DNA of 64,000 nucleotides from Coraliomargarita sp. (GTDB lineage Bacteria; Verrucomicrobiota; Verrucomicrobiia; Opitutales; Coraliomargaritaceae). Shown one piece after another: positions 26,487 to 62,857 of this stretch. The translations under genes were made by a program, and so were the position numbers. The stretch is taken from assembly GCA_965216325.1 (NCBI GenBank), contig OZ244160.1, forward strand, positions 2,720,001-2,784,000, given 5' to 3'. Within the stretch, counting starts at the first letter, position 1, and the number at the start of each line of letters is the position of its first letter. The notes under the pieces are model-generated. The model did no database searches. It worked only from the letters and a program-made list of their open reading frames with translations, and was not told the DNA's origin.

Positions 26487-26539
26487 GCTCCCCTGCTTGG
26501 TGAGGAGGGGTGGCTCGCGAATGCGAGACGGGGTGGTGC
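26487..26539. repeat. Palindromic repeat, family B (empty homologue of the site occupied by IS copy 1)
   Basis: Reverse complement matches 49403-49469 joined to 51005-51012. Confidence 0.8.
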
Positions 26540-26541
26540 GA

Positions 26542-42928: not shown

Positions 42929-44834
42929 GTGTGCCGAGCATGCGCTCGATGTAAAAGTGGTTAAAGTCCGCTATAGTAAGAACCTAATCATAAAATGAAA
43001 GAACTATTACCAGATGCCAAGGGCGTTGTCGTGAGGCAGGGTCTGAAGGAAGGCTATGGGAAAGCTGCGAGCTGATGAACAAAAACTGCATAGAAGGCCG
43101 ACGTGGTCTGGTGAGCTGGCACCACACAGCGAAACCGCTAGGTTCAGCCACGCAGGTAAATGCAGCAGTTGTGCAGCGGAGCATCGAGTGCTTACCTCGG
43201 GAGGCCTCAGCGAGTGGCATGGGTTGGCTTAAAGGTGTCAATCAAGCCCATGCACCTGAGTCAGTAATGACACAGGCGGCACTGGTTGAGGAGTCAGCAG
43301 CGAGCATAGTAGTCATGGAACCGCGAGCCATGAGTAGGTCGATAGGCCGAAGAGCATGGAGGTCTCGAACGTGATGAAGGCTCAAACCGTATATGGGCAG
43401 TCCGACCCGCAGGCAGGTTCACCTCTCACTGGCACAGACCCGTGTCGAGAGTTGGGCGATGTTTGTGCAGGGAAGCATGGGGCTGCCGAGCAAGAACTAC
43501 TGGAGTTGATGCTGGACCGCGCTAATCTGAACGCAGCTTGGCGGCGTGTGCGCAGCAACGGTGGAGCTTCTGGCATCGACGGTATGTCGATCGAGGACTT
43601 TCTGCCGTTTGCGCGCGAGCACTGGTCGCGGATCGAGACTCAACTGAAAGAGGGAACCTACCAGCCAGCCGCGGTGCGCCGCGTCTGGATACCGAAGGAC
43701 AATGGGGAGAAGCGCCCACTGGGCATCCCCACGGTGTTGGATCGTGTGATCCAGCAAGCCATCGCTCAGGTAATTGCGCCGATCTTTGAGGCACAGTTCA
43801 GTGAGCACAGCTTCGGCTTTCGTCCAGAACGCCGAGCTCATGACGCAGTCAAGTCGATCCAAAGCGCAGCCGCCAAAGGTCACGTGTACGCGGTCGATTG
43901 TGACCTGAAGTCATTCTTCGACACGGTCGATCATCGTGAATTGATGCAGCGTCTAGCGCGCCGGATCAAAGACGGGCGCGTGTTGCGCCTGATCTACCGC
44001 TACCTGAAAGCAGGCATCCGCTTGCCCGATGGCAACACCGAGGCAACCGCCGAGGGGGTGCCACAGGGGGGACCGCTCAGTCCGCTACTGGCCAATATCA
44101 TGCTCGATGACCTCGACCATGAACTCGAACAACGCGGGCACCGTTTCGCACGCTACGCCGACGATTTTGTTATCGTCGTCCAAAGCAAGCGAGCGGCTGA
44201 GCGCGTGATGCACAGCATCAGTGGCTTCATCGAAGCGAAGCTCAAACTGATCGTGAATCGCGAGAAAACGAAGGCGGGTCGGCTGACACAGTGCAGCTTC
44301 CTCGGATTCGTGATCTCGCCCAAGCGTATCCGCTGCTTGGATACCAAACTGCACACGTTCAAGAAGACCATCCGTCAAATCACCTGTCGCAGTTGGGGCA
44401 TCTCCATGGAGGAACGCCTCGAACGTCTACGACTGTATGTGAATGGCTGGCTGGGTTACTTCGCTATCGGTGTGCCGTTCAAGGATATCCGCAGCATGGA
44501 TCAATGGCTACGAAGGCGTGTGCGCTTGTGCTACTGGAAACAGTGGCGTTTACCGCGCACGCGCTACCGCAAGCTACGCGCGCTTGGGATCAACCCGAAG
44601 ACGATTAAGCAGGCTAGTCGTTGTCGAAAAGGCTACTGGCGCTGCAGCAAACTGCGAGTGGTCAGTATCGCGATGAACAACCAATGGCTCGCCGAACAAG
44701 GCTGCCCCTCAATCAAAGAACAGTGGCTCAAACTCTGCTATCCAAACGGATAGCCCTAACGGAACCGCCGTGCTACGGAGCCGTATGGCCGGTGGTGTGG
44801 GGGCGGGAGTCAGTGATGGCTCCCGCTACCCGAT
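42929..44834 (+). mobile_element. Group IIC (attC-targeting) intron
   Basis: 5' GTGTGCCG; DV GAACCGCCG.. with CGC triad; DVI ending CCCGAT; exon junction TGGT/TAGC just after the attC hairpin; opposite orientation to cassettes. Confidence 0.9.
43356..44753 (+). CDS. ltrA: Group II intron reverse transcriptase/maturase without endonuclease domain
   Basis: RPLGIP..DR, SFGFRP, GVPQGGPLSPLL, RYADD, X domain (GWLGYF); start could be 43374. Confidence 0.95.
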   Translation: MEVSNVMKAQTVYGQSDPQAGSPLTGTDPCRELGDVCAGKHGAAEQELLELMLDRANLNAAWRRVRSNGGASGIDGMSIEDFLPFAREHWSRIETQLKEGTYQPAAVRRVWIPKDNGEKRPLGIPTVLDRVIQQAIAQVIAPIFEAQFSEHSFGFRPERRAHDAVKSIQSAAAKGHVYAVDCDLKSFFDTVDHRELMQRLARRIKDGRVLRLIYRYLKAGIRLPDGNTEATAEGVPQGGPLSPLLANIMLDDLDHELEQRGHRFARYADDFVIVVQSKRAAERVMHSISGFIEAKLKLIVNREKTKAGRLTQCSFLGFVISPKRIRCLDTKLHTFKKTIRQITCRSWGISMEERLERLRLYVNGWLGYFAIGVPFKDIRSMDQWLRRRVRLCYWKQWRLPRTRYRKLRALGINPKTIKQASRCRKGYWRCSKLRVVSIAMNNQWLAEQGCPSIKEQWLKLCYPNG

Positions 44835-49378: not shown

Positions 49379-49523
49379 GTGTGGAAATGAAAGTGGCTGG
49401 AGGCACCACCCCGTCTCGCATTGCGCCTTCGACGGGCTCAGGGCTGGCGAGCCACCCCTCCTCGTCAAGATGACATGGGAGGAGTTGCCAGCGGTGAGTA
49501 ATCACTAAGCTAGCACTCCAGCC

Positions 49524-50678
49524 ATGAAGAATACGAAATCACTCACTCCCACATCAGATAAACAGACTGAAGCGAAAGCGGATGTCCTCAAGCTTGGAAT
49601 CGACGTGCACAAGCGGCAATACGTTGTCGTGGCTCAGTTTGATAATCAGTCTCCGAAGACTCCACAGCGGTTTAGTCCTGAGGCATTTTTGGTTTGGATC
49701 AGCAAGCAGCGTGCCTACGCACAGCGTATTGTGACATGCTACGAAGCGGGCTGTTTCGGTTACGTGTTGCATCGGAGGTTGGAATCGATGGGCATCGAGA
49801 ACTTGGTCGTGCGTCCGCGTAACTGGGATGAGTATGGCTCGAAGGTGAAGACCGATGCCCGTGATGCGACCGAGCTTTGCAGCCATCTTGATCGTTATCT
49901 GGCGGGCAATGAGCGTGCTTTAAGTGTGGTTCGAGTTCCGAGCGAAGAACAGGAGCGTTCACGTAGTTTGAGCCGACAGCGCGACACCTTATCCAAAGAG
50001 CTCAAGCGCTTGCAGAACGTAGGAACCAGCAATGCCCGCTATTACGGTTATGAACTGAAAACAACTTGGTGGAAGCAGAACAACTTCAAGGAGTTGCTGC
50101 GTGAGTTGCCTGAGTATCTACTGGAGATCTTGCGCCCATTTCAGGCGATCTTAGCGAGCATCGATAAACAGTTCCGTGAAGTCACCGCACGCGAAGAGCG
50201 CAGAGCAAACCGCAAACTACCCGTTGGTCTGGGAGCACTCACAGCCTCGATTCTGGACAATGAGTTTCGTGACTACAGTCGCTTCAAAAACCGTGGCCAA
50301 GTCGCGAGCTATACGGGGCTGTGCCCGAGTGAATCTTCCAGTGGCGGCTCGCGCAAACAGGGTAGTATTAATAAACATGGCAATCCTCGTGTACGCCATA
50401 CTCTGATCGAGGCGATTTGGCGCTTTCTTCAGCACCAACCCGATTACGATCCGATCAAAGACTGGAGGAAGCGTATGTGCAATGAGCCCTTTAGTGCAGC
50501 TAAGAAAAAGAAAATGACTGTAGCTATCGCACGTCGATTTGCCGTGGACTGGTGGCGAATCAATACAGGGCAAATAGAGCCTGAAGCAGTCGGCTTGAAG
50601 GTGGACTATCCGAGCGCCTATGCAACGCGTGCTTTGCGTGAAGGCCGGATCGTCAAAATCCATGCGAAAGGAGCTTAA
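49524..50678 (+). CDS. IS110 family DEDD recombinase/transposase
   Basis: GIDVHK, YEAG, KTDARDA; C-terminal SYTGLCPSESSSGG..GN. Confidence 0.95.
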   Translation: MKNTKSLTPTSDKQTEAKADVLKLGIDVHKRQYVVVAQFDNQSPKTPQRFSPEAFLVWISKQRAYAQRIVTCYEAGCFGYVLHRRLESMGIENLVVRPRNWDEYGSKVKTDARDATELCSHLDRYLAGNERALSVVRVPSEEQERSRSLSRQRDTLSKELKRLQNVGTSNARYYGYELKTTWWKQNNFKELLRELPEYLLEILRPFQAILASIDKQFREVTAREERRANRKLPVGLGALTASILDNEFRDYSRFKNRGQVASYTGLCPSESSSGGSRKQGSINKHGNPRVRHTLIEAIWRFLQHQPDYDPIKDWRKRMCNEPFSAAKKKKMTVAIARRFAVDWWRINTGQIEPEAVGLKVDYPSAYATRALREGRIVKIHAKGA

Positions 50679-50700
50679 CAACTGATTTTTATGTAATTTG

Positions 50701-50860
50701 GAACGTTGGCTTGCGCGGCTCCCCTCCTGGTTCTTTGAAGAACCGATACCAAGATTGCGCGGCCTTTGTTCCTCTTGCCGATTGAATAGATCAACTTGCA
50801 CTGCTGAGAACAGGCACGTGCGGATAGCAGGTTATGCCCGGCAGTTTGCCGAATGCATCA
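50701..50860 (+). ncRNA. Putative bridge/seekRNA of IS copy 1
   Basis: Two internal-loop hairpins with target guides CTCCCCTCCT/ACCAAG and donor guides TCAACT/ATAGCAG; boundaries approximate. Confidence 0.8.
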
Positions 50861-51078
50861 ACAGAGGAAACGTTTCAAATGAATGATCTTAAAATGGGGG
50901 CTCATTGCCGCCCCCAAGCCCCCGCTAGGGGAACAGAATCGAAAGTAGATATATCCATGCATTAACAAAATTACGAAACCGCTTGACGATATCTCCCATA
51001 GCAGGAGGGGAGTTTTGGGCTCTGCGTTTACGTGGGGGTGTCCTTGCGCTGCATTGAGTTGTCTGGCTTTGCGGGCCT

Positions 51079-61314: not shown

Positions 61315-61430
61315 AAGTGGCCTTGTCCACAGGGGCGATGCGTCGCGAGTCGAGCGAGCATTGTCAGGCGATTATTTGTAGATGACATGGGCGTTTATCA
61401 GGAGCACGGAAGTGCTATGATGATAAACTT

Positions 61431-62519
61431 ATGCAAAACCCCACATCATCTACACGGACAACTAAGAACGCACTGGGCACAGTAATCAAGCTTGGCATTG
61501 ACGTGCATGCGAGCACCTACGTGGTGGTCATGAAGATCGATAGCAGCGCCCCTTCACGCGCGAAGCGCATGAAGCCTGATATCTTCCTTCGATGGATTAA
61601 GCAGCTGAGCACTCAGTGCGAGCAGTTGCAAAGTTGCTACGAGGCCGGTCCTTTTGGTTACAGCCTGCACCGCAAGCTCAAGGCGATGGGCGTGAACAAC
61701 CACGTAATCCGCCCGATCAACTGGGACACTCATGGTAAGAAGGTAAAGACCGACGCGCGTGATGCGTTGCAAATGGTCTTGAGTCTGGACGGCTATCTGC
61801 GGGGCAATGACCGCAGCTTCAGTGTCGTGCGTGTGCCCAGCGAGCAAGAAGAGCGTCACCGCAGCCTAACCCGGCAGCGTGAAAGCTTCGTCAAAGAACG
61901 TGGCCGTGCGGCCAAGCGTGGTAAGAGTCTGGGACTGTATTACGATCAACCCTTACCCAGCGGCTGGTGGAAGCCGCGCAAATGGATGCAGCTACTCGAA
62001 CAGCTCGACGATTTTTTGATCAGCCTGCTGGAGCCACTGCGGTTAAACTGCCTGCACTTTAGCGAGCTAATCAGCAACATCGAAGAACGTATCGAAGCGC
62101 TCGAGCCGGAACGGGTGCTGCCTAAAGGCATGGGGGTGGTCCTCTATGAACAGATCGAACGTGAGGTCTGCAACTGGAAGCGATTCAACAACCGCAAGGC
62201 GGTCAGTTCCTTTACCGGACTGTGCCCAAGCGAAGACACTAGTGCAAATCGGCGTTTCCAGGGCTCGATCAACAAACACGGCAGTCCCCGCCTGCGGCAT
62301 ATGCTACAAGAGTGCGCCTGGTTATTGATCCGGTGGAATCCCGGCTACAGTGGGGTGCGTAAATGGCAGGCCAAGCTCAGCGACGAGACCACCAGTAAGG
62401 CGACCCGCAAGAAAATTGCCGTGGCCATCGCCCGGCAGTTCGCCGTGGACTGGTGGCGCATACGCACTGGCCAATGCAGTCTCGAAGACTTCGGACTGAT
62501 AAGCAGACAAAACCCATAA
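61431..62519 (+). CDS. IS110 family DEDD recombinase/transposase
   Basis: GIDVHA, YEAG, KTDARDA, FTGLCPSE; divergent paralogue of 49524-50678. Confidence 0.95.
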   Translation: MQNPTSSTRTTKNALGTVIKLGIDVHASTYVVVMKIDSSAPSRAKRMKPDIFLRWIKQLSTQCEQLQSCYEAGPFGYSLHRKLKAMGVNNHVIRPINWDTHGKKVKTDARDALQMVLSLDGYLRGNDRSFSVVRVPSEQEERHRSLTRQRESFVKERGRAAKRGKSLGLYYDQPLPSGWWKPRKWMQLLEQLDDFLISLLEPLRLNCLHFSELISNIEERIEALEPERVLPKGMGVVLYEQIEREVCNWKRFNNRKAVSSFTGLCPSEDTSANRRFQGSINKHGSPRLRHMLQECAWLLIRWNPGYSGVRKWQAKLSDETTSKATRKKIAVAIARQFAVDWWRIRTGQCSLEDFGLISRQNP

Positions 62520-62583
62520 GTCCGAACCAACGCTAAAGGCCTTCACCCTCTGATTTTAACGTTCTTTTGCAGTTTTCCTTTGT

Positions 62584-62760
62584 GCGGAGTGAGTCTGACC
62601 AAGCCCCTGTTGCCAACACAACGATTTTGTAGAATAGGCCACTTCGCCACCAAGCTTTTGAATGACCCAATGGATAGGTCATAGTGTGCTCTTCTGAGAA
62701 ACACTCAGAAACACGGATAGCAGGTTATCCCGGATCATCGAAACTCCGAGGCCATGCGCG
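62584..62760 (+). ncRNA. Putative bridge/seekRNA of IS copy 2
   Basis: Target guides AAGCCCCT/TTTGTAG, donor guides GTCAT/ATAGCAG, same layout as copy 1; boundaries approximate. Confidence 0.8.
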
Positions 62761-62857
62761 GTGGACGCTCAAAGACGATTGCAATCAAAACAAACCACTT
62801 ATCTTATGTAAAAACACTCACACGCTTCTACACTCTTGACAGAAACGAACATAGCAG

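Follow-up and report, generated by a model that had tools for sequence, protein, structure and literature searches.

Here, we describe an insertion sequence (IS copy 1, positions 49470 to 51004, a span that counts one copy of the core dinucleotide) in a 64,000-nt stretch of Coraliomargarita sp. DNA (the window), which, judged from its sequence and from comparison with relatives, is very probably an intact IS110-family element of the IS1111 type whose non-coding region encodes a bridge RNA (seekRNA). The predicted two-loop guide RNA can be read directly from the raw sequence at the locus, the window contains occupied as well as empty target sites, and a diverged second element nearby (IS copy 2) provides an internal control. 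A preliminary examination of the letters alone (the sequence-only reading) had proposed that a loop in the non-coding region matches the element's own insertion site, and this target-loop reading is supported by IS copy 2, by permutation tests over 38 elements, by covariation of the stem and by a guide order like that of seekRNAs.

The element, its transposase and the interrupted repeat

IS copy 1 is present as a single copy in its own 3.06-Mb genome (genome-wide search). The left end (49470 to 49523, + strand) is 54 nt long; its terminus is ATGAC, and the subterminal inverted repeat ATGGGAG comes next (49475 to 49481). The right end (50679 to 51002), downstream of the transposase gene, is 324 nt long, and its terminal part (50983 to 51002, + strand) contains a -35-like TTGACG (50983 to 50988), CTCCCAT (50993 to 50999), which is complementary to ATGGGAG, and a terminal AGC. 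These subterminal inverted repeats are 7 bp long and lie 5 and 3 nt inside the ends, at the minimum of the 7 to 17 bp that characterize the IS1111 group, and the long non-coding region 3' of the transposase gene combined with a short left end likewise fits that group. With one mismatch allowed, the terminus ATGACATGG forms the left end of IS copy 1, IS copy 2 and 34 fetched loci; the remaining fetched loci have variant left ends, are cut by a contig end or are without a terminus match.

The transposase gene (49524 to 50678, + strand) is an intact open reading frame encoding a 384-aa IS110-family DEDD/Ser transposase with all catalytic residues present, as identified by Pfam (PF01548, E = 7.7e-10; PF02371, E = 5.6e-18), NCBIfam (NF033542, 'IS110 family RNA-guided transposase', score 168.6 bits, cut-off 140), alignment and profile search. 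As expected of the IS110 family, four acidic residues lie in an N-terminal RuvC-like DEDD domain (PF01548) and a serine, S273, lies within GLCPSESSSG in the SG motif of a C-terminal Tnp domain (PF02371); D27, E74, D111, D114 and S273 are invariant across 25 aligned relatives, from which four loci with in-frame stops (L020, L022, L024 and L078) had been excluded. A single-sequence phmmer search of the PDB with the transposase alone gave no match, and a profile built from the 25 sequences matched ISCro4 (9t56, E = 1.4e-6) and IS621 (8wt6, E = 8.2e-5) in the Ser-Gly region. Searching plasmids by tblastn returned matches below 35% identity only and no named IS, the best of them (30 to 34% identical) being annotated merely as 'IS110 family'.

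IS copy 1 interrupts the loop-proximal part of a REP-like palindromic repeat (family B), of which a 12-nt motif search found about two dozen genomic copies with the consensus GCACCACCCCGTCTCGCTTCGCGATCCACCCCTCCTCGTCAAGGAGGGGAGC (also given as GCACCACCCCGTCTCGC..CGCGATCCACCCCTCCTCGTCAAGGAGGGGAGC; palindrome form CCCCTCC...GGAGGGG). The left half of the interrupted repeat, a long variant (49403 to 49469, + strand), ends with GTCA and the core AG (49468 to 49469), and on the other side (51003 to 51013, + strand) the core AG (51003 to 51004) is followed by the repeat's right half, GAGGGGAGT. About two dozen repeat copies give the empty-site consensus GTCA-AG-GAGGGGAG, that is, ...CCACCCCTCCTCGTCAAGGAGGGGAGC. 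Since GTCAAG is common to this site and the left junction and AGGAGGGGAG to this site and the right junction, and the two overlap in AG, the core is AG; the target of IS copy 1 is given as GTCAAGGAGGGGAG and as AGGAGGGG. The boundaries and the core thus follow from the repeat consensus, against which the core assigned in the sequence-only reading was upheld, and from termini common to IS copy 2 and many of 79 related loci. AG at both junctions in the absence of terminal inverted repeats corresponds to the site-specific insertion of the IS110 family, and the same arrangement is found at nine copies of IS copy 2. Unoccupied exact CAAGGAGGGGAG sites number 18 in the genome; IS copy 1 is single-copy despite them and may be inactive or recently arrived.

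The probable target-binding loop and its covariation with the insertion site

The target-binding stem-loop of the predicted guide RNA (50700 to 50772, + strand) consists of an outer helix GGAACG/UGUUCC, the short helices GGC/GCC and GCGCGG/UUGCGC, then a 10x10 internal loop and lastly a capping hairpin, GGUUCUUUGAAGAACC (50729 to 50744, + strand). Folding of 50690 to 50790 gives a minimum free energy of -31.3 kcal/mol (z = -2.87; 3 of 200 shuffles were as stable), and the same local fold is recovered from the 326 nt that run from the stop codon through the right-hand core (50679 to 51004). In the centroid structure the three helices close an internal loop whose whole 5' side is CUCCCCUCCU and whose 3' side is GAUACCAAGA, in agreement with the earlier proposal that two guides face one another across such a loop. 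The elements of that proposal were found where it had placed them: stems GCGCGG (50713 to 50718)/TTGCGC (50755 to 50760) and GAAC (50701 to 50704)/GTTC (50768 to 50771), hairpin GGTTCT (50729 to 50734)/AGAACC (50739 to 50744), GAT (50745 to 50747) and ACCAAG (50748 to 50753).

The right-target guide CUCCCCUCCU (50719 to 50728, + strand; CTCCCCTCCT as DNA) is, as had been claimed, the exact reverse complement of AGGAGGGGAG (51003 to 51012), the core plus right flank, and is therefore complementary to the top strand. On typical repeats, which read ...GAGGGGAGC, it may reach 11 nt (GCUCCCCUCCU, extending to G50718). The left-target guide region, ACCAAG followed by AU (50748 to 50755, + strand), contains CAAG (50750 to 50753), identical to left flank plus core, and the AU that comes next is also how the left end of the IS starts; no sequence in the target-loop alignment departs from the core AG. 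All of ACCAAG had originally been taken as the left guide. Its 4/6 match to the occupied left flank GTCAAG (49464 to 49469) was reproduced, with CAAG pairing and AC left unpaired at that site. The further claim of a 6/6 match to an empty copy also holds, at 26496 to 26501 on the minus strand of a degenerate unoccupied repeat copy (26490 to 26541, - strand; ...CCACCCCTCCTCACCAAGCAGGGGAGC, also read ...CTCACCAAGCAGGGGAGC), but the right side of the same copy, AGCAGGGGAG, matches only 9/10 of the right guide, and the full left match there is probably incidental given that the left guide is short across the family.

When the non-coding region (324 nt) was shuffled 5000 times with dinucleotide content kept, the core-anchored 10-mer never arose. 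Unanchored complementary matches of at least 10 nt to the 40-bp reconstituted site arose in 42 of 5000 shuffles, or 70 of 5000 with either strand counted, rates that are inflated by the C/G-rich, palindromic nature of the site. The complementarity could accordingly be an accident of composition, or a captured fragment of this low-complexity palindromic repeat with no guiding role, as might also be suggested by the 8 nt of the right guide that are identical, in the same sense, to the repeat's left arm. As the target is palindromic, strand assignment is ambiguous from IS copy 1 alone, and the 4/6 left match carries little weight by itself. We nevertheless regard such an accident or capture as extremely improbable, since the core-anchored match is absent from the shuffles, the match occupies exactly one side of a conserved internal loop, and relatives with non-palindromic, unrelated targets carry matching sequence in the same columns. 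Column readout and permutation tests across relatives, described below, already largely refute it; the evidence that decides for the guide reading is comparative.

Scanning of genome contigs yielded 260 relatives, of which 79 loci were retained, the majority belonging to Opitutales, Puniceicoccaceae and other Verrucomicrobiota; most of these share termini (clade form (AG)ATGACATGG...CCCATAGC(AG)) and carry a conserved GGATAGCAGG motif within their non-coding region. Target-loop regions from 41 loci were aligned, three of which were dropped from the right-guide test for having less than 10 nt of right flank. RNAalifold predicted the closing helix and the capping hairpin with compensatory changes in 12 of 12 pairs (4 of 4 counted pairs in the capping hairpin), leaving both guide strands unpaired in the consensus folds rather than buried in stems. 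When the outer helix was added, 89.7% of cells were paired and 16 of 18 pairs had changed on both sides, compared with 40 to 52% paired in slid controls.

In a fixed-column readout, each element has a 5' loop strand that reverse-complements its own core and right flank. Matches reach 12/12 in L031, 11/12 in L075, 10/12 in both L076 and IS copy 1, and 8 in L010, which is inserted in the same kind of repeat as IS copy 1. Right guides match their own flanks at 7.87 of 10 positions (n = 38) against 6.18 +/- 0.20 when permuted, and the 25 unique guides at 7.8 against 5.68 +/- 0.26 (0 of 20000 permutations in each case). The 3' loop strand has the form N4-5-AG-AU and, beyond AG, matches the left flank over 2.32 contiguous nt, where permutation leads to an expectation of 1.27 +/- 0.14 (0 of 20000 permutations; n = 28, with L018 dropped as it is without an AG core and three left flanks taken from a separate readout). 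The left guide of the clade thus appears short, at about 2 to 3 nt beyond the core, and in IS copy 1 CAAG alone would count. Kinship among the elements inflates these permutation tests, yet the changes recur in separate target classes: at least 10 distinct classes carry matching guides (AGGAGGGGAG, AGGGGCTT, AGGGGTCAG.., AGGAGTCAG, AGGAGGAG, AGTTTGGC, AGGATGGGTG, AGGTTGGGTG, AGGCCGCGT and AGGGCGA). A first covariation test, which scored the best sliding-window match against cross-paired flanks, was discarded: 30% of 1310 cross pairings equalled or exceeded the own pairing, the test failing to discriminate because of best-of-window scoring and G-rich targets common to many elements.

IS copy 2 (61380 to 62857, + strand; core AG at 61380 to 61381 and 62856 to 62857) is present in nine genomic copies and encodes a transposase 45% identical to that of IS copy 1. 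It has the same termini (AG-ATGACATGGG...CATAGC-AG) and a different target, nn(C/T)GT-AG-GGGCTTTGCTTGCGAAGCCC, also given as nnCGT-AG-GGGCTTTGCT, as derived from its nine insertions. At the homologous loop position, the right-target guide reads AAGCCCCU (62601 to 62608), AGGGGCTT in reverse complement, and the left-target guide, UUUGUAG (62626 to 62632), equals the left flank plus core of the window copy. That IS copy 2 carries its own target sequence at the same loop positions indicates that guide and target have changed together. Fold, guide readout and permutation tests all agree with what is known of bridge RNA and seekRNA target loops, and support the view that the loop of IS copy 1 behaves as the target-binding loop of an IS110/IS1111-type guide RNA.

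The predicted donor-binding domain and the extent of the RNA

Downstream of the target loop, a predicted donor-binding multiloop domain (50769 to 50869, + strand) is closed by the basal helix UUCCUCU (50769 to 50775)/AGAGGAA (50863 to 50869). A hairpin, GCAC (50798 to 50801)/GUGC (50818 to 50821), separates two single strands, and a second hairpin follows at about 50835 to 50858 (both + strand). The strand 3' of the first hairpin holds the left-donor guide GGAUAGCAGG (50822 to 50831, + strand), which contains AUAGCAG, equal to the right end ATAGC plus core; the strand 5' of it holds a weak candidate right-donor guide, AUCAA (50790 to 50794, + strand). Alignment of 27 longer regions gave a consensus fold of 26 pairs, 22 of them with compensatory changes. 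The motif GGATAGCAGG, which likewise contains ATAGCAG (right end ATAGC and core AG), is nearly invariant across the family, and the 5 nt before the GCAC/GUGC hairpin are complementary to, and covary with, the first 5 nt of the left end (GTCAT/ATGAC, GTCAA/TTGAC, GTCAC/GTGAC, GTTTT/AAAAC, GATAT/ATAAC and GATAA/TTAAC as pre-hairpin stretch/left end). In IS copy 1, AUCAA pairs with 3 of the 5 left-end bases, and a (G)AUCA(A/C) stretch is also found in its closest relatives. A second loop matching the joined ends, the donor, is what is expected of a bridge RNA or seekRNA, and the order is that of the target loop, with the top-strand guide first and the bottom-strand guide second.

The target outer helix and the donor basal helix share 4 nt (UUCC) and would compete or may alternate, and both covary; the GAAC/GTTC closing helix of the sequence-only reading is the one that shares these 4 nt with the second domain. 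We infer that the guide RNA extends from about 50698 to 50871, or roughly 170 to 190 nt. For IS1111 seekRNAs a shorter species of 80 to 100 nt is reported, which here would span 50698 to 50775. A gathering-threshold Rfam scan of the window found no model for a guide RNA, and a permissive scan of 50600 to 51050 gave two chance-level matches (E = 1.4 and 7.6) to a GC hairpin near 50896 to 50933. Between 49300 and 51200, no sigma-70-like promoter was found, and the sole terminator-like site lies outside the element, with none within 50679 to 51004.

An alternative is that the structured 3' region acts in cis on the transposase mRNA (as a terminator, a stability element or an antisense target) and that the protein itself reads the repeat hairpin. 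A protein could read REP hairpins, as these are structured DNA, and recognition of structure on top of base pairing is reported for ISPpu10 (bioRxiv 10.64898/2026.03.19.712850). We judge this very unlikely, because covariation between loop and flank over many target classes is unexpected of a purely regulatory structure, the terminator scan called no site within the right end and core, and the transposase carries the RNA-guided family signature (NF033542).

Metagenome and RNA-library contigs add a second locus and sequence variants. In DNA metagenome runs X5 and X7, a copy with 13 to 14 differences over about 1550 nt interrupts another copy of the same repeat, its left side reading ...CCGTCTCGCTCC-GCGAGCCACCCCTCCTCGTCAAG and its right side AGGAGGGGAG-CTTAAAAAAGCTCCTCCCC... 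(flanks also given as ...CCTCGTCAAG and AGGAGGGGAGC...). This is a second locus with the same target, at which the right guide could pair over 11 nt. RNA run X19 covers 49522 to 49684 only, inside the gene. In RNA run X20, one contig joins 50254 to 50343 with 50715 to 50928 and looks like a 371-nt deletion form. Neither run is proof of transcription, and gaps in their coverage are uninformative. In a further X20 contig, the 31 nt that end the element on the right are joined to an unrelated flank, AG-ACTCAAAAAT; since relatives that are 70 to 82% identical have very similar right ends with different guides, the contig may derive from such a relative whose guide differs.

These data also bear on whether the guide RNA of IS copy 1 is decayed or inactive, the element being a fossil whose left-target and right-donor guides no longer fit. 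Such decay would account for the single copy beside 18 perfect empty sites and for matches of only 4/6 in the left guide and 3/5 in the right-donor candidate. It is nonetheless unlikely, in that the reading frame is intact with every catalytic residue in place, six of the closest aligned relatives share a conserved GAUCA(A/C)C stretch, a near-identical copy occupies another locus in the metagenomes, and short left guides are the rule in the clade.

Proposed mechanism and relation to known systems

Complementarity, loop architecture, guide-target and guide-donor covariation and the catalytic residues are observed here, and the steps that follow, namely transcription and processing of the RNA, its binding by the transposase and the chemistry, are proposed by homology and covariation. 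The first domain (50700 to 50772) would act as the target-binding loop, its two guide footprints overlapping on the AG core, and the second (50769 to 50869) as a multiloop that recognizes the element's own joined ends. AUAGCAG within GGAUAGCAGG has the same sense as the right end plus core and would pair with the bottom strand, and the short stretch 5' of the GCAC/GUGC hairpin would pair with the first bases of the left end, weakly so in IS copy 1. The excised circle is expected to join right end, AG and left end, with the junction ...CTCCCATAGC-AG-ATGACATGGGAG.... By analogy to IS621 and ISEc11, a tetramer of the DEDD/Ser transposase would hold circle and target on one RNA, cut next to AG and exchange strands, so that the insertion would be flanked by AG at either end, as is observed.

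The mechanism is already known, as bridge or seek RNA transposition was described in 2024, and nothing new is added to it here. According to PMC11187229, IS1111 seekRNAs come from the non-coding region downstream of the transposase gene, with the top-strand match 5' of the bottom-strand match and the two overlapping in the target, an order that is the reverse of that in the IS110 type; PMC11208160 reports that 93% of IS1111 elements have a bridge RNA predicted in their right end, and that in many of them the donor guides sit in a multiloop. IS copy 1 resembles the IS1111 group (ISEc11, ISPa11 and ISKpn4; Siddiquee et al. 2024, PMC11187229) in its non-coding region 3' of the gene, subterminal inverted repeats, top-strand guide first, overlap at a core dinucleotide and donor multiloop, and resembles ISPa11 in inserting into REP sequences. 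It differs from the group as described there in its longer transposase (384 aa, and 362 aa in IS copy 2, versus 330 to 350 aa reported for IS1111), in its identity of less than 35% to plasmid IS110 genes, in belonging to a clade that among the fetched loci is mostly from Verrucomicrobiota, and in its very short left guide of about 2 to 3 nt beyond the core.

Target-binding and donor-binding loops were defined in IS621 (Durrant et al. 2024, PMC11208160), which, as presented there and in PMC11208158, shares with IS copy 1 a two-loop RNA, a left guide for the bottom strand and a right guide for the top strand, a 2-nt core overlap and a recombinase with DEDD RuvC and Ser Tnp domains (the profile match to 8wt6). 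The two differ in where the RNA is encoded (left end, upstream of the gene, in IS621; right end in IS copy 1) and in the core (CT in IS621, AG in IS copy 1). They also differ in the guides: IS621 has its left guide on the 5' side of the loop and as the longer one (8 to 9 nt), and IS copy 1 has the opposite order, with a long right guide (10 to 12 nt). ISPpu9 and ISPpu10 of Pseudomonas putida are reported as REP-targeting IS110-family elements with AG at both boundaries (PMC12288879); like IS copy 1 they occupy a fixed position in REP palindromes. They differ in host phylum and repeat family, and ISPpu9 has, by the same account, its bridge RNA upstream of the gene, within the long 5' transcript. 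Among the matches listed for IS110 and bridge RNA in the literature, Verrucomicrobi* was not mentioned. What is specific to IS copy 1 and its relatives is the clade, the targeted repeat, the very short left guide and a possible bottom-strand handshake.

The handshake concerns the base that follows the core on the left-guide strand, which equals the left end's own first base: elements that begin with ATGAC, ATAAC, AAAAC or ATACC have A and those that begin with TTGAC or TTAAC have U (ATGAC goes with A(U), for example, and AAAAC with AA), L001 (G) being the one exception among the A elements. This base could pair with the recombinant left junction's bottom strand, a possibility based on about two independent changes; the handshake guides described in IS621 by Hiraizumi et al. 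(2024, PMC11208158) are top-strand ones. It is conceivable, and we put it forward only tentatively, that the Verrucomicrobiota clade uses a variant guide code, in which a right guide of 10 to 12 nt would do nearly all of the target reading, with a left guide of about 2 to 3 nt beyond the core and a bottom-strand handshake. If true, the clade would amount to a compact recombinase set that follows different programming rules and has palindromic repeats as its natural targets.

The match between guide and target would explain why the palindromic repeats of the host are hot spots for insertion. IS copy 1 and its relatives add a well-defined Verrucomicrobiota clade, with about 80 fetched loci and at least 10 target classes, to the RNA-guided IS110/IS1111 elements, and give searches of orthologues for programmable recombination many natural guide-target pairs to draw on.

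Insertion sites and copy number of the two elements

The second IS110-family element of the window (IS copy 2, 61380-62857) belongs to a set of nine near-identical genomic copies, the other eight of which lie at other places in the genome. All nine share the insertion site nn(C/T)GT-AG-GGGCTTTGCTTGCGAAGCCC, and this target of the element is matched by its own guides. Directly after the IS copy 2 insertion sites there is also a GC-rich hairpin, which looks like a terminator or a member of another repeat family.

The related element IS1 is present only once, despite 18 exact unoccupied CAAGGAGGGGAG sites in the whole genome, compared with the nine copies of IS copy 2. The repeat copy that IS1 occupies (49403-49469) belongs to a long form of the repeat, in which about 30 additional nt (ATTGCGCCTTCGACGGGCTCAGGGCTGGCGAG) separate the two conserved blocks. 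This long form is found in one further genomic copy (2860778-2860846, 86% identity).

Library contigs, related loci and a group II intron match

Two contigs from a seawater RNA library (run X20) match parts of IS1. One fuses positions 50254-50343 to 50715-50928 with 7 nt of microhomology at the joint, and lacks the intervening 371 nt, so that the transposase gene is missing its 3' end and the target loop its 5' closing stem; it may represent a form of the element shortened by deletion, or a misassembly. The other reproduces the final 31 nt of the right end (50974-51004) without a mismatch to the window and then runs into an unrelated flank beginning with ACTCAAAAATCATG; its source may be a closely related element that carries a different guide, or an off-target insertion. 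Among the related loci, the transposase genes of L020, L022, L024 and L078 are probably pseudogenes or reflect sequencing errors, because each reading frame contains an in-frame stop. Elsewhere in the window, positions 43025-43190 match group II intron domains D1-D4 (Rfam RF02001, 126.6 bits).

Conserved features downstream of the guide RNA

IS1 carries a GC-rich hairpin, GGGGGCUCAUUGCCGCCCCC (50903-50925), on the 3' side of its guide RNA domains. This hairpin is not followed by a T-run and is also conserved in the non-coding regions of the related loci L002, L004 and L005. Closer to the right end, a -35-like TTGAC(A/G) located 16 nt ahead of the right-hand core is conserved in IS1 (50983-50988), IS copy 2 (62836-62841) and loci L001-L010. 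In an excised circle, this right-end motif would point toward the left end, and could form a circle-junction promoter driving the transposase gene.
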